Positions 5,403 to 48,600 of a stretch of DNA of 64,000 nt are shown here, piece by piece (within the stretch, counting starts at the first letter, position 1; each line of letters starts with the position of its first letter). The position numbers and the translations under genes are program-made. The notes under the pieces are model-generated. The model was not told the origin of the DNA and made no database searches. It worked only from the letters and a program-made list of their open reading frames with translations. Origin of the DNA: a virus; IMG/VR virus record IMGVR_UViG_3300032086_003797, positions 96,001 through 160,000 of that record; one strand, written 5' to 3'.

Positions 5403-5634
5403 AAGTTTCTTGCTAAATGAGGACTTTAGTGCTAGCAACTATTCGTATTCATTACAAGCTATAGAAGATAATCTAAAATCTATTAGAGTTTCCTCTAAGA
5501 AAGACAAAAATCGTATATCTCTAGCTTTGGAGCAGACAAGAAAAATGAAGTCTCACCTCCGTAGGCTTGAGGAGAAAATTAACCACTTAGAAGAGCAGCT
5601 TCAGGTTTTAAACGAGGATTCAGGAGATAAGTAA
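5377..5634 (+). CDS. Hypothetical coiled-coil protein
   Basis: 85 aa, heptad-like C-terminus, overlaps both neighbours. Confidence 0.65.
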   Translation: MSLLNKITKSFLLNEDFSASNYSYSLQAIEDNLKSIRVSSKKDKNRISLALEQTRKMKSHLRRLEEKINHLEEQLQVLNEDSGDK

Positions 5635-21034: not shown

Positions 21035-22201
21035 ATGACAAAGAAATATAATGTATTGTTGCCTGTCGCAGGGCGAGCACAAAGATTTTTAGATAAGGGC
21101 TATACTATGCCCAAGCCGCTAATCATGGCAAATACCAGGCATGTTATTGATTGGGCTATGGATGCATTCAAGGCAGATGACTGCAATCTTATTTTTGCAG
21201 TTCGTCTAGATCATATTCACAACTTCTCAATCGATCAAATATTGAGGGATAAATTTGGTGAAGATGTAAAAATTGTTATTGTTGACCATATCACAGATGG
21301 ATCAGTGTCTACTTGCTTATTAGCTAGAGAATATATTGACAATGATTTGCCTTTGTTTATTTATACACCTGATGTATATTACGAAAACCAGTTTGACCCA
21401 GCCTCTGTACCAGAAGAGATGGATGGATATCTGTTGACATTCAAAGCAAATAGTCCAGCACACAGTTATGTTGAAATGAATGAGGATGGTTATGCAACCA
21501 GAACAGCAGAGAAAGAAGTGATTAGTCAGAACGCTGCTGTTGGTGTTTACTATTATAAAACTGGTAAGATGTTCATTCAATATGCAGAAGAAATGATCGA
21601 AGCGAATATTCGTGTAAAGAATGAGTTCTATATCTGCCCAATGTACAACCTTATGATCCGAGATGGCGCTAAGGTTGGTATCCATCAAGTAGAGAAGATG
21701 CATGTTCTGGGAACCCCACAAGAGTTGGAATTCTTTGTAAACCATGTAGCACCAAGGTTTGGGCAGAAGCCCGTAGCTATTGCTTGTGACCATTCAGGGT
21801 TTGAAGCTAAAGAGATGGCTAGGAGAGTGTTAGAAGCTAATGGCGTTCCTTATGTTGATTTTGGAACTTATGTAAACCAAAGCTGCGACTACAACGACTA
21901 TGTGTCACAAGCTATTAGAGCAATCCAGAATAACATCTGTGACTTTGGTATTGGATTTTGCCGCACAGGTCAGGGCGTAAATATATTAGCTAGTAATATG
22001 AATGGCACTATTGCGGCTTTAGTATTTGACGAGTATACAGCCGAACATGCAATGACTCATAACTGTGCTAACTGGTTTTCAGTACCGAGCAAATATGTTA
22101 GTGAATCTACGTTCGATAGGATGGTAAAGCTATGGAAGACCTCATCATTTGATGGTGGACGCCACATGACTAGAATGAGCAAAACACTAGGAACGAAATA
22201 A
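21035..22201 (+). CDS. Sugar-phosphate nucleotidyltransferase fused to RpiB/LacAB isomerase
   Basis: LPVAGRAQRF...PKPLI, EK..IS, LGTP.EL. Then IACDHSG...DFG...DY...CRTGQG...N...FDGGRH..R (RpiB). Confidence 0.88.
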   Translation: MTKKYNVLLPVAGRAQRFLDKGYTMPKPLIMANTRHVIDWAMDAFKADDCNLIFAVRLDHIHNFSIDQILRDKFGEDVKIVIVDHITDGSVSTCLLAREYIDNDLPLFIYTPDVYYENQFDPASVPEEMDGYLLTFKANSPAHSYVEMNEDGYATRTAEKEVISQNAAVGVYYYKTGKMFIQYAEEMIEANIRVKNEFYICPMYNLMIRDGAKVGIHQVEKMHVLGTPQELEFFVNHVAPRFGQKPVAIACDHSGFEAKEMARRVLEANGVPYVDFGTYVNQSCDYNDYVSQAIRAIQNNICDFGIGFCRTGQGVNILASNMNGTIAALVFDEYTAEHAMTHNCANWFSVPSKYVSESTFDRMVKLWKTSSFDGGRHMTRMSKTLGTK

Positions 22202-23151
22202 TGCCTGAGTACAAGGACCCAATACAAGGAGGTATCACTACCATAATACAGGGACCAATAAATGATGTGTCTCTCAAAAATATTCCTCAGTACCTCCGAA
22301 ATGGTCCTGTTGTGATACATGCATGGGATTACAATCAACAAATACCGCATTGGCGCAACTCTGAAAATTATAACAGTATATTATCACAAATAAAGGATTT
22401 TTATGGCGATCGGGTAAAAATAGTTTTGTGCCCTGTGCCACAGGAATCTAAAAATATCAAAGATATACACTCTGATCGCTGGGCTGACTGGGCGCTACAA
22501 TTTGCTAACAAGACATTCCATTTTGCAATGTATGGGATTAGTGACGCACTAAAACACGTTGAGACAGAATATGTGTTAAGAACAAGAAGCGATGAAGCGT
22601 ATTCAAACGTTGATTTATTCATAGAAGCATTATGCAGAGACCCAAAGAAATTTGTTATGGGTAATATTTTCGCTGCACCTATGAAAAATCAAGAATTTCA
22701 TATTGGTGATCACATCTATGCCTGCAAGTCAGAAGATTTATATCATGCAACTAATCAGCTAGCATCTTTTTACTATGGTTATAATAAAGATCCAAAATGG
22801 TTTTATTTCCAACGACCAATCGGTTTTGAGCAGGTATTAGCATATTCTTGGATGGACTGTACTGGCATCGACATGTCACTACCCTTACGTCCAGAAAATA
22901 TTGAATCCTTGCCGCCTATGAGAAGAGCTTCCCCAGAGCTTCGGAATTTTATCTTATCGAACAGTGTACAATCAGACATAAAAAATAGAGAAATAAGAAA
23001 GCAGGTCGCACATGATTATTTTCATGTGATAGATATCAATAAAGCACGCCCCTTTAGGGCTCGCTGGAATCATTGTGGTAAAACCTTTATAGATCAATTT
23101 CAAAATCCGCACGGGGTCTATAATACAGGAGATATGTTAGATGGATATTAG
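22201..23151 (+). CDS. WavE-like glycan synthesis protein
   Basis: IIQGP...G...V.TEYVLRTRSDE...HIGDH. Confidence 0.6.
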   Translation: MPEYKDPIQGGITTIIQGPINDVSLKNIPQYLRNGPVVIHAWDYNQQIPHWRNSENYNSILSQIKDFYGDRVKIVLCPVPQESKNIKDIHSDRWADWALQFANKTFHFAMYGISDALKHVETEYVLRTRSDEAYSNVDLFIEALCRDPKKFVMGNIFAAPMKNQEFHIGDHIYACKSEDLYHATNQLASFYYGYNKDPKWFYFQRPIGFEQVLAYSWMDCTGIDMSLPLRPENIESLPPMRRASPELRNFILSNSVQSDIKNREIRKQVAHDYFHVIDINKARPFRARWNHCGKTFIDQFQNPHGVYNTGDMLDGY

Positions 23152-23170
23152 AAATAAGGAGACATGCTAA

Positions 23171-23827
23171 ATGAATACGCCTAATAGAGATATAAATTTA
23201 CATCAAAGACTATTAAAACTTTTATACGATCATAATGAAGAGCATGTTGGAAGCTGCTTTACTTGTGTGGATATAATTGATAATATTTTTAAAAACAAAA
23301 ACGAAGATGATATATTTGTACTGTCAAATGGACATGCAGCATATGCTTTATATGTCGTATTAGAGAAATATTATGACCATATTGATGCTGACGCATTAGT
23401 AGAGAAACATGGTGGTCACCCTAACTGGGATGAGGATAATCACATCTATGTATCAACTGGCAGTTTAGGCTCGGGTATTGTTATTGCAGTAGGTAGAGCA
23501 TTAGCAAATCGCAACCGTAAAGTTCATGTTATGGTTAGTGATGGAGAATGTGCTGAAGGTTCCGTATGGGAAGCATTGCGATATGTAGAAGAATATAATG
23601 TTGACAATATGGAAGTTTATGTTAACGCAAACGGCTGGGCATGTTATGATCCCGTAGATGTGGAATACTTAGAGCGACGTTGTAAAGCTTTTTTGCCAAG
23701 GATTCATTTTCATAAAACCGATGTCAACTCATATTTCCCATTTTTGAAAGATCTTGATGCACACTATTGCAAGCTTTCAGCGGAAGATTATAAACTAGGT
23801 ACGGAGATGTTGAATAATGAGCGTTAG
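23171..23827 (+). CDS. Transketolase-like protein, N-terminal ThDP-binding subunit
   Basis: H.GS, LSNGHA, GHP, STGSLG.G, SDGECAEG..WEA...N ThDP motif. Confidence 0.88.
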   Translation: MNTPNRDINLHQRLLKLLYDHNEEHVGSCFTCVDIIDNIFKNKNEDDIFVLSNGHAAYALYVVLEKYYDHIDADALVEKHGGHPNWDEDNHIYVSTGSLGSGIVIAVGRALANRNRKVHVMVSDGECAEGSVWEALRYVEEYNVDNMEVYVNANGWACYDPVDVEYLERRCKAFLPRIHFHKTDVNSYFPFLKDLDAHYCKLSAEDYKLGTEMLNNER

Positions 23828-24299
23828 AAAAACATTTGTCAGTTTACTACATGAAGAAATGAAACAGAACGACAATATTGTATTTGTTGTTGGTGATTTG
23901 GGATACGGACACTTTGATGAGATCCGAGAAGAGTTCCCAGACAGGGTTATCAACCCAGGGGCGGCAGAACAGTTAATGATGGGGATGAGTATTGGCTTAG
24001 CTCAGGAGGGCAAGCTTGTAGTATGTTATTCAATGACGCCATTCACATTATATCGACCATTTGAATTTATTAGAAACTATGTTGACTATGAGAAGATTCC
24101 AGTCAAATTAATTGGTGCGGGTAGGGATAAAGATTATCTTTGGTTAGGCTGGTCACATTGGGCGACTGATGACAAGGAACATCTTAGCGGCTTCAAGAAT
24201 ATTGAAAAGCACTGGCCTGAAGACCCCGAAGATATGAAACGCTTATTTAAAGGTATCATGTATAACGGGAAACCAACTTATGTGAATTTGTCAAGGTAA
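23817..24299 (+). CDS. Transketolase-like protein, pyrimidine-binding subunit (no C-terminal domain)
   Basis: GDLG...FPDR.IN.G.AEQ.M.G...GLA..G...R..E.IR...G.SH...DD; stops right after P.YV.L.R. Confidence 0.85.
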   Translation: MSVRKTFVSLLHEEMKQNDNIVFVVGDLGYGHFDEIREEFPDRVINPGAAEQLMMGMSIGLAQEGKLVVCYSMTPFTLYRPFEFIRNYVDYEKIPVKLIGAGRDKDYLWLGWSHWATDDKEHLSGFKNIEKHWPEDPEDMKRLFKGIMYNGKPTYVNLSR

Positions 24300-25948: not shown

Positions 25949-26587
25949 ATGTTTATAGACGACAAAAGAAAAATAATATTTGTACACAACCCAAAAGCAG
26001 CAGGGTCTTCAATTCATATACTGCTTAAGGATTTGTATGAACTTAGAGACACCGATAGGCACGACCCAGAACCACACATACACCACATGAGTTACCAACA
26101 AATCCTAAATTTAAAACCTGAATACTATGGATACTATTCATTTGCTGCTGTTAGAAATCCTTGGGCTAGATTATTATCAGGCTATATGGATTTTGTACAA
26201 AATAGAAAACATGAGTACTCTGGTTTGATACGATATGATGAGCCATTATTATCTGAGTATAAGGATTTTAAAGATTTTGTTATGAGGATTGGCGAAGGCA
26301 AATGGATAAACGATGTTCATTTCCTCCCTCAGCATGTTTATACTCATGCAGAAGATAAAGTTGTCGATATGATCCTAAGGGTAGAAAATATCAATATGGA
26401 TATTCAAGCACTTATGAATAAAATAGGATTTAAGTATTACCAGCACTTATTCGGCGCTCATTGGCAGAGACACAGATCCACTAAGCACGGACATTATACA
26501 GAGTATTACGACGAACAAAGTGCAGCTAAAGTAGTTGAATTATATGCAAAAGACATAGAGCTATTTGGGTATCAATATGGAGAATAA
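25949..26587 (+). CDS. Sulfotransferase (Sulfotransfer_2 family)
   Basis: FVHNPKAAGSSI (5'-PSB), VRNPWARLLSGY (3'-PB), HFLPQ, Y.KD.ELFGY. Confidence 0.88.
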   Translation: MFIDDKRKIIFVHNPKAAGSSIHILLKDLYELRDTDRHDPEPHIHHMSYQQILNLKPEYYGYYSFAAVRNPWARLLSGYMDFVQNRKHEYSGLIRYDEPLLSEYKDFKDFVMRIGEGKWINDVHFLPQHVYTHAEDKVVDMILRVENINMDIQALMNKIGFKYYQHLFGAHWQRHRSTKHGHYTEYYDEQSAAKVVELYAKDIELFGYQYGE

Positions 26588-27452
26588 GTGCATAGTATCG
26601 CAAATACATATTCCTGATCATGACCCTCAAGGTAGTTTAGGGTTTCTAGCTAAGCAGGAGATAATTGATACAAACATACAAAGCTTAAGAAGAAACAATC
26701 CAGATGCATACATAATTTTAGTTGGTCATGGACATGAGCCTTATGACTCTACTAAAGATGTTTGTGATAAATTTATTTGGGAAGACTTGCACCCAATCGA
26801 CGGTGGCGGCACGGTAATAGGGATGCCAGCCCAATATAAGTCTGTATCGCTAGGAATAGAACACGCAAAAGAAAAAGGCTTTGATTATTGTTTGAAAACT
26901 AGAGGTGACTCTATAATAGCAAAACAAGATATTATATCATACTGCCACGACATAATAAAATCAGAAGATAAGATGATTCTCCTAACCCAGCAAACTGGCA
27001 AGGAACTATACAAATTTGGCGATTGTTTTATGTATGGAGAAATAGACCTATTGAGTTCTATATGGGATGCAGCCAACCCCCCGTTTCATGCCGATGGCTT
27101 AAGGCACACAGGCATATCGTTTGTAAAGCATTTCTCTGGTAAGGTTCCTCCTATACCATATAACCCACAAGCAATACTTTATGAAGATAAAAACTGGACA
27201 GATCTTTTGAAAGAATATTGTTCGTTTAGGGACATTGGTGAAATAGGGTTCTGTGATCTTAGGTGGAATTATAACCAGATGCAGCAAAATTGGAAAAACA
27301 ATAAACAACAAATATTAGACCTTGAATACGACTTTGAAGAAATATACTGGGGTCGAAGTAATGGATGGCACAACTTCAATAGTATGGGTCAGGTAGTAAG
27401 TCATGGTGGTATGTGTCACTGGGCATATACTCAAGCGGAGTTTTATAAATAA
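26577..27452 (+). CDS. Hypothetical glycan-cluster protein (WavE/GT-like KTRGD motif)
   Basis: Q...V..G...AK..G..YCLKTRGD...D.FMYG; context. Confidence 0.45.
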   Translation: MENKCIVSQIHIPDHDPQGSLGFLAKQEIIDTNIQSLRRNNPDAYIILVGHGHEPYDSTKDVCDKFIWEDLHPIDGGGTVIGMPAQYKSVSLGIEHAKEKGFDYCLKTRGDSIIAKQDIISYCHDIIKSEDKMILLTQQTGKELYKFGDCFMYGEIDLLSSIWDAANPPFHADGLRHTGISFVKHFSGKVPPIPYNPQAILYEDKNWTDLLKEYCSFRDIGEIGFCDLRWNYNQMQQNWKNNKQQILDLEYDFEEIYWGRSNGWHNFNSMGQVVSHGGMCHWAYTQAEFYK

Positions 27453-27453
27453 A

Positions 27454-27891
27454 ATGTTATTGATTTCACATAGAGGTAACTTGTTCGGACCTAATGAGGT
27501 TGGAGAAAATAATCCTAAAAAGATAGCTGAGTTAATTGATCGAGGTATCCATGTGGAGATCGATGTCTGGTCTATCGATAATAAAATGTACCTAGGGCAC
27601 GATAAGCCGACACATTTTGTTACCACTGATTTTTTATTACATCCAAATTTATGGTGTCATGCTAAGAACATTGAAGCACTAGAACATCTCTTAAACGTAG
27701 GGGCGCACTGCTTTTGGCACGAAACAGATTCTTACACTGTGACAAGTGATAAAATTATTTGGACATTTCCAGGTAAACAACTTACCCCAAGATCTGTTAT
27801 AGTATGTCACTCGGAAGAAGAAACCGAGGCAGTTATGAAAACAAACGCATATGGCGTCTGTAGTGATTATGTGGGGTATTACAACAAATGA
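27454..27891 (+). CDS. PLC-like/GDPD-like phosphodiesterase-fold protein
   Basis: ISHRGN...EN...VEIDVW...LGHD...LWCHAKN...GVCSD. Confidence 0.7.
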   Translation: MLLISHRGNLFGPNEVGENNPKKIAELIDRGIHVEIDVWSIDNKMYLGHDKPTHFVTTDFLLHPNLWCHAKNIEALEHLLNVGAHCFWHETDSYTVTSDKIIWTFPGKQLTPRSVIVCHSEEETEAVMKTNAYGVCSDYVGYYNK

Positions 27892-28841
27892 AGATAGTAG
27901 CAGTAACAGGGTGCATGGGGCTGATAGGCTCCCATGTTACAAGTGAACTACTCCAGCGTGGTTATCTTGTATTGGGAATTGATAAGCTGACTTATGCAGC
28001 CAACAGTGAGGCAATGCAGACCTTCAACGACTTGCCTGGTTTCACTTTTTTGCAAAAAGATATTTGTGAGTTGGAATCTATACCTGATTGCGATTATGTT
28101 ATCAATCTGGCGGCAGAATCGCACGTTGGCAATAGTATCATTGACGGTACAGACTTTATTAGTACGAACATTAGCGGTGTGCAAAACTTGCTCAAGATTA
28201 TTCAAAATAAGCCAAGCAATGTTTGTGAGAGACCTGTGCTCCTTCACTTTAGCACCGACGAAGTATATGGAGATCTAGAGGAGGGCTCATTTACAGAAGA
28301 TAGCTCTCTAAATCCCAGCAACCCTTACTCGGCTACCAAAGCGGCAGCAGATCATTTGATAAAGTCTTGGAGCAGGACATATGGAACAGAGTATGTCATT
28401 GTCCGTCCAACAAATAACTATGGGATATTTCAATACCCAGAAAAACTTATCCCTCTATCAGTAAAGTTATTGCAAAGAGGTAAAAAAATTAGACTCCACA
28501 ATAAAGGCGAGCCTACAAGAAACTGGCTTCACGCTGCTGATACCGCAAATGCGATTATCACTATTATGGAGTCGGGTGTAAAAAATGAAATTTTCAATAT
28601 ATCTGGTGGTTTTGAACAGAAGAATATTGATACAGTAAAGAAAGTGATAGACTGTTACTTTGAGGAAAAAGTAGAAGATTATGACCAATACCTTGACTTC
28701 TCACATGAGCGTGAAGGACAAGATGTTAGATATTCGGTAGATGACAGCAAGTTAAGAAACCTAGGCTGGTCACCAAGGTTTGATTTTGATGAAGAAATAA
28801 AACATATTGTAAAATATTACAAGAAGACATTCGTATGGTAG
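27888..28841 (+). CDS. rfbB: dTDP-glucose 4,6-dehydratase-like NDP-sugar dehydratase
   Basis: TGCMGLIGS, DKLTYA, AAESHV, STDEVYG, PYSATKA, NNYG..QYPEKLIP, R.GQD.RY. Confidence 0.88.
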   Translation: MKIVAVTGCMGLIGSHVTSELLQRGYLVLGIDKLTYAANSEAMQTFNDLPGFTFLQKDICELESIPDCDYVINLAAESHVGNSIIDGTDFISTNISGVQNLLKIIQNKPSNVCERPVLLHFSTDEVYGDLEEGSFTEDSSLNPSNPYSATKAAADHLIKSWSRTYGTEYVIVRPTNNYGIFQYPEKLIPLSVKLLQRGKKIRLHNKGEPTRNWLHAADTANAIITIMESGVKNEIFNISGGFEQKNIDTVKKVIDCYFEEKVEDYDQYLDFSHEREGQDVRYSVDDSKLRNLGWSPRFDFDEEIKHIVKYYKKTFVW

Positions 28842-29041
28842 CAAAGAAAAGACACTTAGCAAAGGCGCTTAGCTGGCGAGCCGTTGGAACAATAGATACC
28901 ATGCTATTGGGTTGGCTCATATCGGGTGATCCTATGGTTGGGGTTAAAATTGGCGCAGTCGAATTGGTAACAAAAATATTTTTATATTATGCACACGAAA
29001 GAGCATGGTATAAATTCTCTAAGTTTGGGGTAAGAAAATGA
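28835..29041 (+). CDS. DUF2061 small membrane protein
   Basis: [14 protein letters not shown]...K..LYY.HERAW. Confidence 0.85.
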
Positions 29042-29985
29042 CAAACAATTTACACTTTCATAATGCAACAGTATCAACCGAAGAGAAGGTACAAAAAAAC
29101 AAACATAAGCCCGCTGTATTATGGTTTACAGGTCTTTCAGGTTCAGGTAAATCTACTTTAGCAAATGCAGTAGAAGTATTGCTATTCCGAAAAGGATACC
29201 AGACACACACCTTAGATGGTGACAACGTTAGGATGGGACTCAATAGTGACCTCGGGTTCTCCCCAGAGGATAGAAAGGAAAACATCCGAAGGATTTCGGA
29301 GGTAGCTAATCTGTTGAGACAATCTGGCACAATAGTGTGCACAGCATTTATTTCACCATACCGCAAGAGTAGAAAATTTGCAAGAGAAATAATTGGAAAA
29401 GACTTTATAGAGATATATGTAAAAGCTCCATTAGAAACGTGTGAGGCTAGAGACCCTAAGGGATTATACAAAAAAGCTCGAAGCGGCGAAATCCCTAATT
29501 TTACTGGGATTAGTGCTCCCTATGAAGAGCCTAGAAGTCCAGAAATCATTGTGAACACAGCAGAGTTTAGCGTAGAAGAATGTGCTAATCACATTGTTGA
29601 GCACCTAGAGGAGAGTGGCTATTTTTCTACTATAAATGAAGTCAACGTACTGGACAAAAAAAGAACTATTGCGATTGATTTCGATGGTGTGATACATAGA
29701 TACAGTCAGGGCTTCAAGGGTCTAATGAATGCCTATGATGATCCAATGGATGGTGCAGAAGCAGCATTTGAGGTACTGAAAGGCGCAGGTAAAAGGCTGG
29801 TTATCTTGTCTTCCCGCCCATCTTCAGTAATAGAAAGCTGGCTAGAAGAAAGAGGCTTAAAGAAATACTTTGATGAAGTATCCAATTTTAAGATTCCAGC
29901 TAACACATATATCGATGATCGAGCATATAAATTTAGAAATTGGACAGATACAGTTAGAGATCTACTAGAAGGGGAAGATCGATGA
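29038..29985 (+). CDS. cysC: Adenylyl-sulfate (APS) kinase fused to a C-terminal HAD-like domain
   Basis: [50 protein letters not shown]. Then IDFDGVIH...SSR...YIDDRA (HAD). Confidence 0.92.
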
Positions 29986-30383
29986 ATAATAGAAGAGCAA
30001 TGTTTATTGGCAGGTGGCAACCATTTCATAACGGGCATAAATGGCTTATGTCACAAAAACTTGATGAGGGTCTGCCTATTTTAATTTGTGTTAGAGATAT
30101 TCCACCCGACGAGAAAAATCCCTTTACCACAGAGCAGACTGTAAAGATGCTGGAAAAAGCATATGAAGATCACGATGTTGTCGTGATGACTATTCCAGAT
30201 ATTGATTCTGTAAACTACGGGCGGGGTGTTGGGTATGGTATTATTGAACATGTACCACCTAAAGATGTTGGCTTTATATCAGCAACTGACATTAGAAATA
30301 AAATCAAAGAAGGCGATGATTCATGGAAGCAAAATGTTGATGAAAAGATTCACGACCTTGTAGTAAAATACCTTAGCGAGTAA
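29982..30383 (+). CDS. Small HIGH-family nucleotidyltransferase (cytidylyltransferase-like)
   Basis: [12 protein letters not shown]...NPF...YGRGVGY...ISATDIR; ATGA overlap with cysC. Confidence 0.8.
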
Positions 30384-30385
30384 AA

Positions 30386-31375
30386 ATGTTACTAATAACT
30401 TATGGCACCAGACCCGAGTACATAAAAGTTCTTCCTGTAATAAATGAAATGAAAAAACGGTCTATACCGTATAAAACCTTCTTCACAGGACAACATACTG
30501 ATTTATTGAAAAAGGCAAGCAAGCCAGACCATATATTAGAAATAGTTGATAATGGTAACCGACTAGATTCAATTATACAATCAATATTAAACAAAGAAGA
30601 AATATTTGTCGATATAACTTGTGTGATGGTACAGGGTGACACTACGTCTGCATTTGCAACCGCCCTAGCAGCTTTTCATAGGAAGATACCTGTGGCTCAC
30701 CTGGAGGCAGGGTTACGGACATTTGATAAATATAGTCCATATCCAGAAGAGTTTAATAGGTGTGCTATTTCTGCTCTTGCGGAAATTCATCTATGCCCAA
30801 CAGATACATCAGCCGATAATCTTAAAAAAGAAGGACGCAAAAATGTTTATGTAGTTGGTAATACTGTTTTGGATAATTTATCTAACGTGGTTACGATGAA
30901 AACAAATAAGGTTGTTGTTACTCTTCATCGCCGTGAAAAACTAGATGAAATACAAAATTGGTTTAAAGTAGTAAATGATCTGGCTAAAAAACATAAGAAC
31001 CTAGACTTTATATTACCTATCCACCCCAATCCAGAAGTCAAAAAACATGCTAATATTTTATCCCATGTAAATGTTATTGATGCACTGGGGCACAAGGAGT
31101 TTATAGATCAGCTTTCAGCTTGTGCTTTTATAATAACCGATAGCGGAGGAGTTCAAGAGGAGGCTGCCTTCCTCAAGAAGCCATGTATTGTTTGCCGTGA
31201 CTTTACTGAAAGAGTGGAGGGGCTAAACACATTTTCAGTCCTCTGTAAGGAACCGAAGTCTTTAGAAAACTTGGTAGACACTTGGGCAACTAAGGTAGAT
31301 TTGTCTAATCAAACTTGCCCTTATGGCGACGGGCAATCATCGAAATATATTTGTGATATAATAAACAATATTTAA
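30386..31375 (+). CDS. wecB: UDP-N-acetylglucosamine 2-epimerase (non-hydrolysing)
   Basis: GTRPE.IK, TGQH, VQGDTTS, HLEAGLRT, PEE.NR, TLHRRE, TDSGGVQEEA, PYGDG. Confidence 0.93.
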   Translation: MLLITYGTRPEYIKVLPVINEMKKRSIPYKTFFTGQHTDLLKKASKPDHILEIVDNGNRLDSIIQSILNKEEIFVDITCVMVQGDTTSAFATALAAFHRKIPVAHLEAGLRTFDKYSPYPEEFNRCAISALAEIHLCPTDTSADNLKKEGRKNVYVVGNTVLDNLSNVVTMKTNKVVVTLHRREKLDEIQNWFKVVNDLAKKHKNLDFILPIHPNPEVKKHANILSHVNVIDALGHKEFIDQLSACAFIITDSGGVQEEAAFLKKPCIVCRDFTERVEGLNTFSVLCKEPKSLENLVDTWATKVDLSNQTCPYGDGQSSKYICDIINNI

Positions 31376-36523: not shown

Positions 36524-39500
36524 ATGGCACACAGTTTTGAGGACCTATACAATTTATACAGAAATCAGCCAGATGGACCTGATGCTGAGATTGCCTATTT
36601 TAGGCAAAATGGTATAAGACAAATAAATGTAAATGTTCGTGATGACCAAGCAACGGTGGTCATGATTGATGCTAACGGGCAAACTCACAGAGCTACAGGC
36701 AGAGTGCCTCAAGAAGAGGTGCCACCTCAAGCAGCACAAGAAGATCTTGGGTATGAGGGGAAGATTACATCAGACCCTTTATCTGTTGAGGAAAGATCGA
36801 TCATAGACCCCAATCCAGATATAGCCATATTTACAAATCAAGATGCATTTCATGGAAGTTACCCAGAAGATCGCCTACAGGAGTTAGGGATAACAAATCA
36901 AGGCACATGGTTCAATACATATAGGGAAGGATTGAGATATCGTTATAACCCCCCAAGCGAAGATATAAATAATCCAACCTCGCCTGAAGACGCCGCTCGG
37001 ATAACGGAGACATCAAAGTTAAAGTTTAAGTATAAACTTATAAAACAGCAAGCTACTAAATTAGCACCAATGTCTTTCCCATTCACAGTGGAAACAAGAG
37101 GGGCTAACAGGGTGCCGTTTAATCGTGCTTTCCCACCAGTTAAGGTTGAATTTACTCTATTGGATGCAATTTATTTTGCCACTCTACATCCTCATATAAT
37201 AGCAGGGTTCACAGTAGAAAGTAGAGGTTTCCTGTTTAGAGAAACAAAATATAAATTTCTATATCTGGAAAAAACCTCTACAGAGGATGAACCAGGCACT
37301 AGACTAGCAAGAGAAATAATGGTTGGTAGGGGCATGTACACGCAAACTGCAACTGCATCTACAAGAAAACCAGTTATGCCTTTAACTGCCCAGACTATCC
37401 CTACTAAGGCAGAACAAAAGGAATTGGACAGCACAACTGCATCCCTATCAGCACAAGAAAATCAAGAAAAACAAAAACAAGCAGAGCGTAGGTCTGCGGG
37501 AACAAGCAGAAACGCATCACTCCAAATGGATGGGACTAAGCCTCTTGGTAGGCAGGTATTATATGCAAAAATATTGGAAGACGGAGCAGTTTGGGTATCA
37601 CAGTTACCTAATGCGAAGCCTAGCGCAGATCCAAGTGTAGGGGAAACATCCTTAGCTAGCAGCATAACTAATAGTCATTTGAATAGGATAGTGCAAGCCG
37701 CAGGTGACGACGGATTACTGGATGATGAGAACGATGGAAAATGGTCAAATATAAATGAGTACACAGGTGATTTTTATGATACTACCACCGACCCTGGTAG
37801 AGAGAAATTTGCTTACGAAATAAAAAAGGTCGGCAATACTGTTTATATACAGAAGCTAGAAAAAGTTCAAAATGTAACACCTACTGAACAGAAACAAGAA
37901 GCGGACGCCAGTGCTATAACTTCCAACAACAGAACAGAAGATGCATATAACTATGATGACTGGACAACCAATATTAACTCTGATAGAGGCGTCCCCAATT
38001 CTTATTACAACCCCAGGTACCCTGAGTCAGTTGCTGTAGCCAAGGATGAAGGTTCTTATTTTGTGGTGATGAAAGCCCCCGCAGATGTTGAGGATAGTTT
38101 AGATTATCGAGCCGAAGAAGCTGAGCTAAAGGAATTGATGTATCGTGCTTTGTGCAACCACCTAAACAAGCCGATAACTGATATGCCTAGCACTCTGAGC
38201 CATGAGATGAAGACTCACTTTGACCCAAGGCCAAATTCAGCGCCACTTATAGCCTTGATAATAAAGAAGACAGAATTTGATAAGTCAGCAGCATCTGGCA
38301 ATATTAAAACTGATCTAGATGAACTAACCCTCCAGAGGGCTATATTGACCAGTCAAAAAAGGTCAGAAAAAAATATATCTTTTACTTTAGAAAAGATGGA
38401 CCCTTTATTCGAGACAGCTTCGCACATTGTTAGAAAATATGCACGCATTGTTGCTGGACAGGGATTGGGCTCGGCTGATATAGGAGTCAATTTATATAAG
38501 CAATATATGGCTCTATCTAAGTTTACTAGTAAGGTAAGATCAGCTTTAGCCCACAATGGTGTATATCCAGATGCAAGTGACCAAATAGAAATAGGATTTA
38601 CAAACGATTATCAAATGCTGCACATTATACATAAATCTAGGATGTATTTCAGTGGCTTTAAGAGGGCAACAATAGATAATGAAATAGCTGTTACTTTGGA
38701 AATAGATTCTATACAAGACCAACCAGAGGGACAGTTTCCATCACAATTAGAGAGCGACAAAAACTATTTTAGGATCTACAAGCAGACTGAATTTGGGTAT
38801 GTGTTTTTTGCAGAGGAGATAGTAAAAAACAACCCACCAAATGCTAGCGATCGAAAACTCACACCGTGGGTAGACTTTGTTCGACTTTATACATACCCTG
38901 CACCAACTATCAACCCAACTAAAGTTAACAATAAAAATAAACTTACCGATGACGGGGATGACCAGATACCATCTCAAAGCCTAACAGATACGGGATCAGA
39001 GATTGAATCTGATGATATTATAGGGAGTTCGCAGGTAGCATATGTAGATAAATCAGCGAGTAAGCCTGGCACACAGATAAGGACAGTAACACAGTCTCAA
39101 AAAGAATCTGAAGCCATCAATATTCGATCCTTCATTGAGAAGAAACAGAAAATAGAAAGAAAGGCAAAATCTTTAGAGCCGCTAGTAGAAGATGCAGTCA
39201 TGAACTGTGGTAATTTACCACAATTACTAGATCAGATCAAGGAGTTATCTGATTTGTTTGATTTGGTATTAGATCAAATTTCATTAGATGAACTGTTTGC
39301 AGCCCTACGAGATTCGCTCCTGCAAGATTTGCAAAAATTATTTGCTATGAAAGATTTAGCAGAAGGCTACACGCCAGGAGCTTTCGCAGGCGCTGGAGAT
39401 CAAGGAGAAGGTCTTGATACCACTCTTTCTACAAGAGCATCAAAACTTGTTTGCGCTCCTTCTTCTGAGTTTGAGGACTTTTTACAAAACGACCTGGCTT

Positions 39501-41923
39501 GTGCCTTAGACCAAATCGGTGATTCATTGAAGAACCAACTCCTTGGTCGAGACTTGAACAATTTACCACTTGATCAGCTAGTTGAGGATAGGATTCGCAA
39601 TCTATTCGGGATAAGCATACCCTTCATACCTATTGAGGGTATTTTATCATTTATACTAAAAATAGTATCCGAAATACTCAAAGAAGCCCTAAGACAAGTT
39701 TTGGTAGCTTTAGTGCAAGAGGCACTTGAAAAATATTTAGACTGTGAAAATATTCCACTTCTCGATGATAACATCGCTAAACTGGGAGATATAAAAAATC
39801 CCGCACAACTATTGGAGTATGGTAAATCTCGCCTGGGTGATCTAATCGGAGACATAGATCTTAACAAGCTTGTTGATGAGCTTGGGATAGAGTTACCCCT
39901 AGAACAGCTTCAAGAAGTATTTGAGAAAGTGTCAGATTGCCTAAACTCCATGGAAATGTTAGCTCTATTATCAGGCAACGCAGGTCCGTTGATAATGCAA
40001 CTTGTGCGTGAGCAATTCGGTGGACTTTTGCTAGATGATCAAATAGATTTATTATTTGACAAAATTGGTGACAATGTATCAGATGAAATAAAGAATGGTA
40101 TAGTGCCAGAGGAATTTTATGTTGACTACTGTAATAAGGCAGACTATGTTAGGGCAGCTAGCAAGGCTTTAGATCTGCTAAGAGACAAGGGTCTTACAGA
40201 CGAGCAAATTAAAAATCAAGCTGATGAGGAGATTAAGAGAGCAGCAGATAAAATAAAATCAATGTGTGATTTTGAAAACCTAGCCAACAATGCTTTGATA
40301 AATGCTCTTAATAACATAAAAGCACCTGATGCTATTGTAGACCTTCAGAGCAAAGCATCCTCCAATATTGCAGCAATAGCGCAAGCAGGGATTAAAGCAG
40401 AGGCAAAACCTTTCATCCTCGGTCGCACACCTCCCAAATATGGCGGTTTCAATCTTGGTTCACTTGCTCCTCTGATTCCATTTCCCGATCCAACATATGG
40501 ATCAGAACAATTAGTTCGTGTGTCAGACGATCGTAATTTAGCCTTGAAAGGTTCGGGCGGCAAAACCGCAGAGCGTGTAGAGGTTAGCTATAATTCAGAA
40601 CACGATGAATATCGGATTGGTAATCTTAGAATAGTTGTTTCTACTCCAACATCTGATGCTGATCGGGGTCCAACAGAACAAGCTGTAGGAATAAATGATG
40701 AGATACAGGAAAAGCCAAATGACATAGTAACAATTATAGTCCATGACATAAAGCCTGACAATCAAGGCGTTCGCCGTGAAACCTATGTTGACGAGTTTGG
40801 TCAGTTTATAGAAAGCAAAAAAGAAGAATTAGAGCAAGATAGAAATGTTTTAGTGTTTTTACAAACTCAGCCTGACAGGAATTATAGCCGCCCAACCCAC
40901 AGCCGACTGCCAAGATTTATCAACCGCCCAAGGGAACTGGGTGAATTCTTAAATCTGTTTTTATCCGCACATCAAGAAAACATATATGGATTTGGCATAA
41001 CAAGTGATCAAATAGAAGAGGCGTATATAGTTGGCAGTGAAGAAGATGGGGAAGCAGCATATCTAAGAGCGCCCGAATCACATGAGGCGGGCAAGTACCC
41101 CTATCCTTTGATGGAGAATTTGGTAATCGACCGTGGTAATGATATGGAAATATTCAATGCTTTTTTTAGAAAAGATGATATCAATCTCAAGAAAAACCCA
41201 AGACAAGATTATTTTGAGTCTGGGATATTCAATGCAGGGAAGGCATACGAGAAGCTTTATGCCGATTTACAGGAAGAGCCTACATTGGTCAACGCAGGAC
41301 CAAACTTTGAGAAAAAGGTAAAGAGAACAACTGCTACTGTTGGCATAGGCGCACGACTAATGCCATTCTTTTGTGCGATATGGCCTTTGTTCAACGCCCC
41401 AAGCGGACAAAGAATCAGGTTTGCATCCAAGGGAGAGGGTCAATATGATGACCGCATCTTTAGGGAGATTATAGAAAATTACCTTACAAGGAAAATAACT
41501 TTTCAACTTGAGAATCTAGGTGTCTTAGACATGTATAATAAGGTATTAGCAGAGGACGATTTTGAGATCGCCGATGTTGTTTCAGTGTTTCTGGATGGTA
41601 TATTTGTAGATAATCCCGATGAATCTAACAAAGTTTTATATGAAGCAATAAACTTCAACGACAGCATTCCAACAAGCGGACAGGGTTCCACCAGCCAACA
41701 TTTTGTTTTAAATGTCTTGGGCACTCAGGACGGAGTTAGTAATTATAATGCAGTTCGGGATAATATTTCTCGGAGCGTATATCCTGTCGAACCTCTTCTG
41801 GCGGTATCAACTATTTACTTAGAGACCTCTTGTAATGCAACTGGTTTATTGGGAACTTCATTTGTAAAGTCTTCAATAGATGCAGATCAATTACTTAGGA
41901 AGTTTTTTGATCCATTAATTTAG
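36524..41923 (+). CDS. Large hypothetical virion protein (1799 aa)
   Basis: Uninterrupted ORF in the baseplate module; helical Leu/Asp-rich central region. Confidence 0.6.
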   Translation: MAHSFEDLYNLYRNQPDGPDAEIAYFRQNGIRQINVNVRDDQATVVMIDANGQTHRATGRVPQEEVPPQAAQEDLGYEGKITSDPLSVEERSIIDPNPDIAIFTNQDAFHGSYPEDRLQELGITNQGTWFNTYREGLRYRYNPPSEDINNPTSPEDAARITETSKLKFKYKLIKQQATKLAPMSFPFTVETRGANRVPFNRAFPPVKVEFTLLDAIYFATLHPHIIAGFTVESRGFLFRETKYKFLYLEKTSTEDEPGTRLAREIMVGRGMYTQTATASTRKPVMPLTAQTIPTKAEQKELDSTTASLSAQENQEKQKQAERRSAGTSRNASLQMDGTKPLGRQVLYAKILEDGAVWVSQLPNAKPSADPSVGETSLASSITNSHLNRIVQAAGDDGLLDDENDGKWSNINEYTGDFYDTTTDPGREKFAYEIKKVGNTVYIQKLEKVQNVTPTEQKQEADASAITSNNRTEDAYNYDDWTTNINSDRGVPNSYYNPRYPESVAVAKDEGSYFVVMKAPADVEDSLDYRAEEAELKELMYRALCNHLNKPITDMPSTLSHEMKTHFDPRPNSAPLIALIIKKTEFDKSAASGNIKTDLDELTLQRAILTSQKRSEKNISFTLEKMDPLFETASHIVRKYARIVAGQGLGSADIGVNLYKQYMALSKFTSKVRSALAHNGVYPDASDQIEIGFTNDYQMLHIIHKSRMYFSGFKRATIDNEIAVTLEIDSIQDQPEGQFPSQLESDKNYFRIYKQTEFGYVFFAEEIVKNNPPNASDRKLTPWVDFVRLYTYPAPTINPTKVNNKNKLTDDGDDQIPSQSLTDTGSEIESDDIIGSSQVAYVDKSASKPGTQIRTVTQSQKESEAINIRSFIEKKQKIERKAKSLEPLVEDAVMNCGNLPQLLDQIKELSDLFDLVLDQISLDELFAALRDSLLQDLQKLFAMKDLAEGYTPGAFAGAGDQGEGLDTTLSTRASKLVCAPSSEFEDFLQNDLACALDQIGDSLKNQLLGRDLNNLPLDQLVEDRIRNLFGISIPFIPIEGILSFILKIVSEILKEALRQVLVALVQEALEKYLDCENIPLLDDNIAKLGDIKNPAQLLEYGKSRLGDLIGDIDLNKLVDELGIELPLEQLQEVFEKVSDCLNSMEMLALLSGNAGPLIMQLVREQFGGLLLDDQIDLLFDKIGDNVSDEIKNGIVPEEFYVDYCNKADYVRAASKALDLLRDKGLTDEQIKNQADEEIKRAADKIKSMCDFENLANNALINALNNIKAPDAIVDLQSKASSNIAAIAQAGIKAEAKPFILGRTPPKYGGFNLGSLAPLIPFPDPTYGSEQLVRVSDDRNLALKGSGGKTAERVEVSYNSEHDEYRIGNLRIVVSTPTSDADRGPTEQAVGINDEIQEKPNDIVTIIVHDIKPDNQGVRRETYVDEFGQFIESKKEELEQDRNVLVFLQTQPDRNYSRPTHSRLPRFINRPRELGEFLNLFLSAHQENIYGFGITSDQIEEAYIVGSEEDGEAAYLRAPESHEAGKYPYPLMENLVIDRGNDMEIFNAFFRKDDINLKKNPRQDYFESGIFNAGKAYEKLYADLQEEPTLVNAGPNFEKKVKRTTATVGIGARLMPFFCAIWPLFNAPSGQRIRFASKGEGQYDDRIFREIIENYLTRKITFQLENLGVLDMYNKVLAEDDFEIADVVSVFLDGIFVDNPDESNKVLYEAINFNDSIPTSGQGSTSQHFVLNVLGTQDGVSNYNAVRDNISRSVYPVEPLLAVSTIYLETSCNATGLLGTSFVKSSIDADQLLRKFFDPLI

Positions 41924-45631: not shown

Positions 45632-48600
45632 ATGAGCATAAAAAAGTTATTTGATGCAAAAAAAGCAGGAACACTTGGTGGTGCCACTCGCTCAACCCTA
45701 AAAAAGCTTGGCGATAATGTAGAGTCACCAGAGCAAATTGAAGCAGCTTTATCGAAAGCTAGGGCTTTTTCACCAAAGATTGATTTTTCAGATCCAGCCA
45801 ATTTCGTTAAATATGGCTCAGCCTATCGTTATTATTATGATACATTTGGATATATCAAAGACTATTATCCTTACGACGGTAGTTCTAGGGAAAAGCTAGA
45901 ATTTTATAATGGATTATCGCCGTTTGAACAGTATATTTTCAACAATGAATACCCTAAAACTACTGGGTATGTTACGATAGGAGCTATTTACGGCACAGAT
46001 GGAGCATCTAAGCAAGGATACACTACGCCCACTACAGCGGAGTACATCCAGTTTAAGGGCGGACCACACAGCGGAACCTTTTTTGCTACAGGATCAGGAC
46101 TAAGTAACAATTTAGAGTTTGGCGGCATCAGTGGCTCAACAGTAGAATTCTTCTATAACAAGACTGAGTTCGATAGTACTATATCGTCCCCAACAGAGGT
46201 GATTCTAGATATTTGGAACGGTGTGTCAAGTGGCTCACATGACTACGGTCGCCTTACGATTGAAACGGATTCAGGATCAGCAGATAGATTTTATGTTTCA
46301 TACCAATCAGGATCAAGTGGTGTGTTTAAAGCATCGGTCCCCACCGCAGGTGGTTTAACACTAGGAAGTGGCTCTTGGGATCATTATGCTTTTGTGTTTT
46401 CCAATAGTGATGATTCTACTTCTATTGATCTTTATGAAAACGGCACATGTAAACAAAGTAATATCCTAACTGGCTCTTCCATCAACTTAGTAACAGGCAG
46501 TCTGATCGGAAGGCTCGGTGCATTAAGAACAGCCCCAGGTCCAATACAGGCAAGTGGCTATGGAACCCAGGCAACTGCCACAGATGCCATTGATATGGCT
46601 GGGTATCAGGCTGCTGGTGATCCTGCTATCAAATTTAACATAACAATTCCTGTCGCCGCAGGTGGGTCTAACACTACCATTACGATAAAATTTGACATCT
46701 CCTCGGGCGGCTCTCCTGTAAGTGCAGGCGCAGACCATATTACCATTGGCACCGCAGGCTCAAACGATGCAGCGAATGCGGCTCTTGTTATAAAAGCAAT
46801 AAATGGTGATACGGACAGCAGAATCACTTATGGAAATGGTTCGGGCGACGGATCATCAGGAATAGGTGTACAGGGACTTACAGCATCAGCAGGAAGCTCA
46901 AGCACCAAGGTTACCCTAACAATTAGTAAGGGTGGCACGTCAGGAAATATTAACAGTGCTGTTGCACACGGCGCAGGGACAGTTAACGTAGTTGATGTGG
47001 CTAACTTTACTGGCGGTGCGGTGATACCCGCAGGGGACGGTAAATTATCGGCTTCTTTGGACGAGTTCAGATTCTGGAAAGAGCCTAGAACAGCAGAAGA
47101 AATTGGTCGCAATTGGTATATGGGTGTTAATGGTGGTGCGAACACCACCATAAACAACTCTGGACTAGGGATATATTATAAATTCAATGAGGGCATTACA
47201 CAGGTTTCTACAACAGATAATGTTGTGCTCGATTATTCTAGTAGGTTATCAAATGGTGCCTGGACTGGTTATTCTACATCAGGGACCAGGAATACAGGAT
47301 CTGCTATAGTATCATCTAGTGCTGCGGGATTTGAGACAGCCGACCCAATTATTTATGATACACATCCAACCTATATTTCATCCAGGGATGACCTATCGTC
47401 TTTAGGGCAGCAGTATGATTATACAAACAACTCCAGTTTGTATTACACGATGCCAGGGTGGATTATTGAACAAGATGAAAGAAACGGCGAAGAACTAGCA
47501 AAACTAACACAGATTATGGGAAGCTACTTGGATACCCTGTATGCCCAAGTAGGCGGTGTACTAACTGTAAAAGACGTTAGTTACCCCACAGGGAGTGTGC
47601 AAGAATCTCCAAACAATGATAGACTATTGTCATCATTAGGGTTTGAGGCTCCTGATTTATTTGATTCTGTTGGTGAGATAGTAAGGTTCTTAGATAAGGA
47701 TGATAAGAGACCATTAGAATCCTCCATACATCAAATTAAAAACATAATCTATAAAAACATTTATAACAACTTATCTTATATCCTTAAATCAAAGGGTACT
47801 AGAAAATCGTTTGGTAATACCTTACGTTGTATGGGCATCGACGAAAAAATAGTAAAAATTAGCACCTATGCTGATAATGTTGAGCAGACCATAACCAGCA
47901 GCTACAAAGCCATTCCAACAGAAAAGAAATTTGTTGACTTTAGTGGTCTTCGTAGGTATGATGATCAAGCTGCCACAATATATCAGCATTATTACGCAGA
48001 TGGATACGATGGGGGTTCAAGTGGGCTTATATCAGGCAACTTAGACCTTGGAGATAATGCATTTACATTACAAGCAGATATCCTCTTCCCACTGAAGCCT
48101 TCCCCAGCAGAGGCTTCATATATTGAGCCAACCTCGCCTAGCTCCTCTTTGTTTGGTTTTCATACACCAAAAATTACAACAACTACGTCTACTGACACTG
48201 CTTGGGCTTCAAACACAATAGACTTTGGGTTGCAGGTGTATGCTGTCCACGCCACAACGGACTACTCTGAAATAACAAGCCCCCAAGGTGCTTCTAGGGA
48301 TGCATATTTTGTAGTAGAAGATAGGTTTGGAAATATTCTTCTTAAGACTGATACAGTTAGAGAAGTATATCAAAATACAAGGTGGGTTTTTGCACTCTCG
48401 GCTCGACCAAAAACCTATCCATTCTCTCAAGAAGTTGATGGTACGGATAATGATGACCAGTCATATATTATAGAATTATACGGAACAAGTTTTGATCTGG
48501 AAGATAAAAGAGCATCTTTTGATTCTAGTAAAATAGTAAATTTTGTAACTGGGTCCTCTACGCTCGCCTCTGCGAAAAGAATATACGCTGGAGCGCACAG

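Follow-up and report, generated by a model that had tools for sequence, protein, structure and literature searches.

The gene module and its setting

The DNA analysed here is a window of 64,000 nucleotides, corresponding to bases 96001-160000 of the virus record IMGVR_UViG_3300032086_003797, which is 174,625 bp in length and about 95% complete as estimated by CheckV. Its genes include PhoH and the baseplate wedge genes of the T4 type. Three consecutive genes in the window form a compact module: a small predicted membrane protein of the DUF2061 family, an adenosine 5'-phosphosulfate (APS) kinase (CysC) with a haloacid dehalogenase (HAD)-like extension, and a nucleotidyltransferase (NTase) of only 133 amino acids (aa). 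The last of these, a candidate minimal ATP sulfurylase, is the main subject of this analysis.

The DUF2061 gene (28835-29041) comes first in the module (PF09834, E = 3e-21, 76 bits vs a cut-off of 23.1); its membrane nature is taken from the Pfam description. The second gene (29038-29985) encodes a protein of 315 aa according to the list of open reading frames (ORFs), with an APS kinase domain (29038-29625) and the HAD-like extension at the C-terminal (29623-29985). The third gene is the NTase (29982-30383). Direct reading of the junctions showed ATGA overlaps at 29038-29041 (DUF2061/cysC) and at 29982-29985 (cysC/NTase), which bears out the translational coupling proposed by an earlier, sequence-only reading of this DNA. 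Upstream, the stop codon of a dTDP-glucose 4,6-dehydratase-like (RmlB-like) gene (27888-28841; TIGR01181 E = 1.5e-91, below the cut-off; PF16363 E = 8e-57) overlaps the ATG of the DUF2061 gene. Downstream, the NTase stop is separated by 2 nt from the start of wecB, the gene of a UDP-N-acetylglucosamine 2-epimerase (30386-31375; TIGR00236, 272 bits, cut-off 210). Family scans of the window ORFs placed the whole module in a co-oriented sugar-modification island on the plus strand, together with the presumed consumer of 3'-phosphoadenosine 5'-phosphosulfate (PAPS), a sulfotransferase of the Sulfotransfer_2 family (25949-26587; PF03567, E = 3.6e-20, 73.6 bits). This sulfotransferase lies on the upstream side, as the sequence-only reading had said, and ends 2.2 kb before the module start.

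The kinase domain is a typical APS kinase. It matched PF01583 (E = 1.6e-67) and exceeded the curated cut-offs of NF003013 (274 bits, cut-off 163) and TIGR00455 (267 bits, cut-off 139), and the CysC alignment (A5) shows no variation in its P-loop, DGDxxR, FISP and RDPKGLY motifs. The sequence is 55% identical to the Salmonella CysC, and the catalytic motifs are also kept in the kinases that accompany the NTase elsewhere. The extension is a small capless HAD phosphatase domain with a Rossmannoid fold, in which motifs I-IV (DFDGV, SSRP, K90 and YIDD) are all invariant in the corresponding alignment (A7). Profile matches to HAD families were weak (aa 204-282), and the Pfam whole-protein score is below the gathering threshold (25.2 vs 26.4). 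Its AlphaFold2 (AF2) model (predicted local distance difference test, pLDDT, 85) has a generic capless HAD fold. The best structural neighbours are the phosphatases 3mc1 (Z 12.2) and BT_0820 2obb (Z 11.8); a large number of other HAD phosphatases score about equally (Z 10-12), and 3qu2, a HAD pyrophosphatase, reached Z 9.5.

Sat (PF01747) and CysD/CysH (PF01507) were not matched anywhere in the whole record, CysN not having been searched separately. The absence of cysD and sat that had been noted for the window therefore extends to the entire record, and no canonical sulfurylase of these two families is encoded elsewhere in it.

Near-identical DNA was found in seawater metagenomes of eight studies, six of them with at least half of the sampled words. 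Most of the matching seawater samples may be the window's own source, and two runs that were not flagged in this way match without differences. One run of uncertain RNA or DNA nature contained three identical short contigs over the RmlB-like gene and cysC, and none over the NTase; a poly-A RNA run contained only pieces with 90-97% similarity.

Sequence and fold of the 133-aa nucleotidyltransferase

The NTase belongs to the HIGH nucleotidyltransferase superfamily, as shown by a PF01467 score above the cut-off (31.1 bits, cut-off 21), a HxGH motif after strand 1 and an ISxTxxR-type motif near the C-terminal. The motifs QPFHNGH and ISATDIR pointed out earlier are indeed present. The likeness to Sat drawn from them is limited to these superfamily motifs. 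The PF01747 score is 17.3 bits vs a cut-off of 24.3 and covers the HxxH region only; among 68 long NTase relatives, only two matched PF01747 at E<1e-4. In the alignment of Sat catalytic domains built here, the Sat sequences read FQTRNPxHRAHE and GRDHAG. The window protein has neither the QxRNPxHxxH nor the GRDHAG motif, but reads [10 protein letters not shown] and YGRGVGY. The N-terminal PUA-like domain of Sat is also missing, the 133 aa covering the nucleotidyltransferase core only.

The closest specific matches are to the N-terminal half of archaeal/NadM-type nicotinamide mononucleotide (NMN) adenylyltransferases (NMNAT), all below the NCBIfam cut-offs. Only residues 5-76 are matched, and the curated scores are far from being reached (46.4 vs 181.2 bits for TIGR01527 and 56.4 vs 127 bits for NF002243). 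A profile of the NTase family searched against PDB retrieved NMNAT (E = 7e-16) and also phosphopantetheine adenylyltransferase (PPAT). The protein is thus a member of the HIGH superfamily only; it fails the Sat comparison by score, motifs and domain layout, and the NMNAT comparison by score and by the NMN-binding segment. It is better described as a truncated NadM/PPAT-like adenylyltransferase. Look-ups in the ESM Atlas and in protein clusters returned "cytidyltransferase family protein" or no name.

The AF2 model of the NTase (pLDDT 95) has three core strands (residues 6-10, 33-39 and 66-72). The five-stranded NMN-binding core of NMNAT is not complete: a non-regular but confidently predicted loop of about 20 residues (73-93) stands where NMNAT has the NMN-binding helix and strands 4-5, and in the pairwise alignment with 1f9a about 30 residues are absent there. 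The overall fold is nevertheless similar to that of NMNAT. The structure 1f9a is the top neighbour (Z 14.2, rmsd 2.6 over 126 residues; Foldseek TM 0.72), followed by PPAT (Z 13.8), NadM (Z 12.3), the nicotinic acid mononucleotide adenylyltransferases (Z about 11), the Thermus thermophilus Sat 1v47 (Z 10.5, 126 residues, rmsd 2.8) and the cytidylyltransferases (Z 6-8).

The residues G10, R11, P14, H16, G18, H19, R38, P47, D73, G80, R81, G84, Y85, S100, R105 and W115 are invariant or nearly so in 59 diverse members. The R38-D39 pair and the YGRxVGY loop set this family apart from NMNAT, with RD replacing GS after strand 2. Since the motifs are invariant, these features are family-specific and the loop replaces the NMN-binding part, the protein resembles an adenylyltransferase that has kept its catalytic residues but whose acceptor site was reshaped and reduced in size. 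Sequence and model together place its origin among the NadM-type NMN adenylyltransferases and not in Sat; the NMN-binding segment was lost, and invariant arginines were gained. A predicted complex of the CysC kinase domain with the NTase gave a score of 0.00 and the verdict "no answer", which weighs neither way.

Linkage to APS kinases and genomes without a canonical sulfurylase

The NTase family includes 2474 near-length protein clusters (1245 representatives at 50% identity) and occurs on more than 568 IMG/VR contigs and in 143 species-level cellular genomes of many phyla. Its association with APS kinases is close. Of the 68 long relatives, made non-redundant at 50%, 49 contain an APS_kinase domain, which the NTase either precedes or follows, and more than 200 NTase-APS kinase fusions were listed. 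Single fusions to Sulfotransfer_2 (P0176), to HAD (P0121) and to DUF2061 were also found. In the cellular loci, a CysC or CysC-like gene directly adjoins the NTase in about 68 of 80, representing more than 10 phyla; in the viral loci, CysC lies within 800 bp of the NTase in 73 of 80, with a variable gene order. A DUF2061 gene is near CysC/NTase in 42 of the 80 viral loci, and DUF2061 is fused to CysC in a Chitinophagaceae chromosome (L069). The HAD domain found in the window is located between CysC and NTase in 16 of the 80 viral loci and in the locus L040.

Several lineages showed particular arrangements. In Nitrospiraceae, CysH is followed directly downstream by the NTase. The Nitrospiraceae with the NTase (G008, G011, G009; L088, L092, L093; L015:5048-6420) each encode a single Sat-like domain as well; the frame that contains it is about 585 aa long and probably a Sat-CysC fusion. 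The GRDHAG loop of this domain is degenerate (GWDYA, EPNYA, GQDYA), and the first His of HxxH is Tyr in one of them; from these residues the domain may be inactive, in which case the NTase would be the working sulfurylase there. The Sat-like domain of the two-domain APS kinase from Thiobacillus denitrificans (3cr8) is likewise reportedly inactive. In metagenome-assembled genomes (MAGs) of Methanosarcinales and Nanoarchaeia (L083:6001-7472, L076, L074), the NTase is fused to an APS-kinase-like domain with a degenerate DGD motif (LDSKILR), directly followed by an intact second CysC. A Marinimicrobia single-cell genome (L065:6001-6760) has two NTase copies in opposite orientation beside one CysC.

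Proteins of about 245 aa in the Xylella phage Bacata (L001:4154-5330) and the Stenotrophomonas phage DLP_6 (L002:4593-5324) combine a truncated APS-kinase-like N-terminal domain with a distant NTase (about 35% identity). They are annotated as "adenylylsulfate kinase", "kinase" or "hypothetical protein", and the Bacata gene follows a NADAR-domain gene. These proteins may have a function other than that of the marine family, and were not used as support. The Joint Genome Institute (JGI) calls the stand-alone NTases of 133-140 aa (P0006, P0011, P0014, P0027, P0048) "adenylylsulfate kinase", a name that was probably carried over from the NTase-CysC fusion proteins.

The absence of sat and cysD, proposed earlier as a check, could be followed in 50 NTase-positive genomes. 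Of these, 36 have neither Sat nor CysD; the others have Sat (7), CysD (5) or a CysD-like protein below the cut-off (2). Two of these genomes are single-chromosome assemblies, namely a Pyrinomonadaceae (G004, 4.5 Mb) and a Chitinophagaceae (G043, 4.7 Mb). Sat, CysD, CysH and AprA were not found in these two or in three further genomes of about 4 Mb; all five have one strong APS kinase, located beside the NTase (G039 has a weak second match). The operon in G043 consists of DUF2061-CysC, the NTase and a sulfotransferase-like gene.

Two control sets were analysed. The first comprised 201 Chitinophagaceae genomes (90% completeness requested) and serves as a negative control with little power for positives, since G043 is the sole NTase carrier. 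Among its 70 CysC-positive genomes, CysD is present in 55 and Sat beside CysC in 14; only G043 has neither. The second set comprised 151 genomes from the Acidobacteriota order of G004. Sat is present in 68 of its 70 CysC-positive genomes, and the two without it are the NTase carriers G004 and G002; G001 of the same order has both NTase and Sat. The Acidobacteriota NTase carriers G251 and G306 also lack Sat and the PAPS_reduct family. When the CysC-positive genomes of both sets are pooled, a canonical sulfurylase is missing from 3 of 4 with the NTase and from 0 of 136 without it (Fisher p about 1e-5, with no correction for phylogeny). The 136 include G364 and G305, which are flagged unpublished (0 of 134 without them); G282, also flagged unpublished, is an NTase carrier without Sat and was left out of the counts.

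Moreover, Sat and PAPS_reduct were not found in 31 large module-carrying viral records, five of which are complete (192-353 kb). The absence of CysH from these 31 records indicates that the phage module is not part of a CysH-based assimilation route.

Proposed function and relationship to known systems

Sulfate activation is the entry step of all sulfation and of sulfate assimilation, and to our knowledge only two enzyme types, Sat and CysDN, carry it out. The fusions, the adjacency, the genomes with a missing enzyme and the Sat/CysD complementarity all agree with, and together strongly support, the earlier proposal that the NTase makes APS for CysC; it is probably an unrecognised, minimal type of sulfate adenylyltransferase (ATP sulfurylase). 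It would then likely represent a new enzyme family for a known reaction. In the literature search, which covered few subscription journals, neither the NTase family nor an alternative ATP sulfurylase was described.

In the proposed mechanism, the NTase would convert ATP and sulfate to APS and pyrophosphate (PPi). Having descended from NadM/PPAT-like adenylyltransferases, it keeps GRWQPFHxGH and ISATxIR, the motifs that handle ATP; the helix that binds NMN and the two final strands have been lost, and the structured SVNYGRxVGY loop and the VRD motif gained. The near-invariant R38 and R81, which belong to this motif and this loop, might hold the sulfate. The ATP sulfurylase reaction is strongly unfavourable and needs a sink for APS, which fits the near-obligate coupling or fusion of NTase and CysC; the coupled CysC, by converting APS to PAPS, would pull the uphill reaction forward. 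As a guess, the fused HAD phosphatase may remove PPi or the product inhibitor 3'-phosphoadenosine 5'-phosphate (PAP), and, equally as a guess, DUF2061 may tether the module at the membrane. The PAPS would feed the sulfotransferase upstream, whose target could plausibly be a glycan produced by the sugar island around the module.

Some observations weigh against a sulfurylase. The nearest characterised relatives by sequence are the NMN adenylyltransferases found by the PDB profile search; Sat was not among the 60 best of 69 PDB matches at E<=10. HHalign of the NTase with a Sat profile aligned only the ISxTxxR region (the last ~39 residues), and the missing QxRNP and GRDHAG are the sulfate-binding motifs of Sat. 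As far as we know, every acceptor used in the HIGH family is an anion, and the gained arginines are therefore not specific evidence for sulfate. Sat or CysD is present in 14 of the 50 NTase-positive genomes, so the NTase does not replace them in every case; a large part of the 50 consists of incomplete MAGs or single amplified genomes, and the complementarity comes from few, phylogenetically non-independent NTase-positive genomes. A phage could in principle use the APS of its host. The role in sulfate activation is derived from comparative genomics, and sulfurylase activity is thus a prediction.

Other functions were also considered. The NTase might work with CysC on an acceptor other than sulfate, forming another 5'-adenylyl anhydride for 3'-phosphorylation by the kinase, in the manner of PPAT and dephospho-CoA kinase in CoA synthesis; or it might be a nucleotide-binding accessory or regulatory partner of CysC. 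Both would also account for the APS kinase fusions and adjacency. The chemical parallel with PPAT and dephospho-CoA kinase is exact, PPAT is a top structural neighbour, and some of the partner kinases have diverged to 26-38% identity with the window CysC, one of them being degenerate. However, scores and motifs identify the window CysC, like most of the partner kinases, as a genuine APS kinase, and under this explanation G004 and G043 would be left with an APS kinase and sulfotransferase-like genes but no source of APS. The Sat/CysD complementarity would be unexplained as well, and the invariant catalytic motifs argue against a purely regulatory role. A non-sulfate or accessory function is therefore considered unlikely. 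It is quite improbable that the NTase is a sugar- or polyol-phosphate nucleotidyltransferase (of TagD or HldE-domain size) serving the WecB and RmlB-like enzymes, with cysC nearby only incidentally. Such a role would suit its place inside a long sugar-biosynthesis island, immediately before wecB, and its size, which is that of the minimal cytidylyltransferases (2b7l and 3glv, Z 6.7-7.1); yet these are much weaker structural neighbours than the adenylyltransferases, and elsewhere the NTase travels with CysC, or is fused to it, whether glycan genes are nearby or not (for example L003).

The family and PDB matches, together with the shared GRxQPFHxGH motif, would favour an NMN or nicotinic acid mononucleotide adenylyltransferase for NAD salvage, as encoded by many large phages. 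This is very improbable, given the scores far under the cut-offs, the alignment of only the N-terminal ~73 residues and the C-terminal motif, and the 20-residue loop in place of the NMN-binding segment and strands 4-5. Besides, the linkage to CysC is systematic in the 80 cellular and 80 viral loci; whereas linkage to NAD genes was not seen in them. All these alternatives are weaker than sulfate adenylylation because the orphan APS kinases stay unexplained and the complementarity is not predicted by them.

On the sulfate adenylyltransferase reading, there is a fair likelihood that the NTases form a third, ~130-aa class of ATP sulfurylases, which arose by recruitment of a NadM-like adenylyltransferase and invariably acts together with an APS kinase. 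The class would serve hundreds of marine and freshwater phages, as well as cells without Sat or CysDN among the Acidobacteriota, Bacteroidota, Marinimicrobia, Marine Group III (MGIII) archaea, Omnitrophota, Planctomycetota, Methanosarcinales and Nitrospiraceae. The viral cysC genes of such modules would then belong to autonomous PAPS/sulfation modules, and would not be assimilation boosters. If so, they should no longer be regarded as auxiliary sulfur-assimilation genes, contrary to the COBRA paper, which assigns phage cysC to sulfate assimilation (PMC10914622). Pathway reconstructions in which organisms or viruses count as incapable of sulfate activation would also need revision, for instance those for the complete chromosomes of Pyrinomonadaceae and Chitinophagaceae and for numerous streamlined marine lineages. 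The JGI names of the stand-alone NTases would have to be corrected, and a very small sulfurylase-kinase pair would become available for PAPS production in vitro.

The island extends over 15.9-31.4 kb of the window. Its remaining genes include a DegT aminotransferase, a HAD protein, a PfkB kinase, a RpiB fusion, a split transketolase, a methyltransferase and a WavE-like gene. At 21035-24299 are a protein of 388 aa that ends in an RpiB/LacAB isomerase domain, an ORF of 316 aa without a family, and the transketolase split into N-terminal and pyrimidine-binding halves; this gene content points to an uncommon pathway for keto-sugars or branched sugars. ORFs of 295 and 162 aa without Pfam or NCBIfam matches fill the stretch from the sulfotransferase to the RmlB-like gene (26565-27891); the 162-aa ORF matched only phrog_34507, of unknown function. 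Elsewhere in the window, a 671-aa ORF (5634-7649) has a weak "cytidyltransferase" PHROG match at residues 429-607, from which it may be a second nucleotidyltransferase-like gene of the same phage. Very large ORFs of 1799 aa (36524-41923) and 3706 aa (45632-56752) are located among the baseplate and tail genes.

Compared with the known systems, the NTase has the proposed reaction (EC 2.7.7.4) in common with Sat, as well as the HIGH/HxxH superfamily, the ISxTxxR-type C-terminal motif, a fold that superposes on the Sat catalytic domain (1v47), and the frequent fusion or adjacency to an APS kinase. It differs in its length (about 130 aa vs about 390 aa), in lacking the PUA-like N-domain, QxRNP and GRDHAG, and in its NadM-like origin. 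CysD/CysN and NodP/NodQ would occupy the same position in the pathway, and the NTase-CysC fusion parallels the CysN-CysC fusion of NodQ; whereas the CysD fold (ATP-pyrophosphatase/PAPS-reductase) is unrelated and the NTase has no GTPase partner. NodPQ is a second PAPS route in rhizobia, and the NTase module resembles such a dedicated route in genomes that also have Sat or CysD, such as G001.

The NadM-type NMNATs (TIGR01527; 1f9a, 1ej2) are the closest relatives by sequence and structure, with identical GRxQPFHxGH and SxTxxR motifs; however, the NTase is about 35 residues shorter, the SVNYGRxVGY loop replaces the central NMN-binding helix and strands 4-5, and the NTase is accompanied in the genomes by CysC, HAD, DUF2061 and sulfotransferase instead of NAD genes. 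PPAT (CoaD) with dephospho-CoA kinase shows the same sequence of steps, in which an anion is adenylylated and the adenosine is then 3'-phosphorylated by a P-loop kinase; the two pairs differ in the acceptor and in the kinase, which in the present module acts on APS. Linkage of a sulfurylase to an APS kinase or kinase-like domain is also known from the human PAPS synthase PAPSS (1x6v) and the enzymes of Aquifex (2gks), T. denitrificans (3cr8) and fungi. The fungal Sat carries an APS-kinase-like regulatory domain, a layout that resembles the Methanosarcinales loci, where the NTase with its degenerate kinase domain is followed by an intact CysC. Unlike in the bifunctional PAPS synthases, the NTase half belongs to a different and much smaller family, and the phage encodes the parts in individual genes that are coupled in translation and accompanied by HAD and DUF2061.

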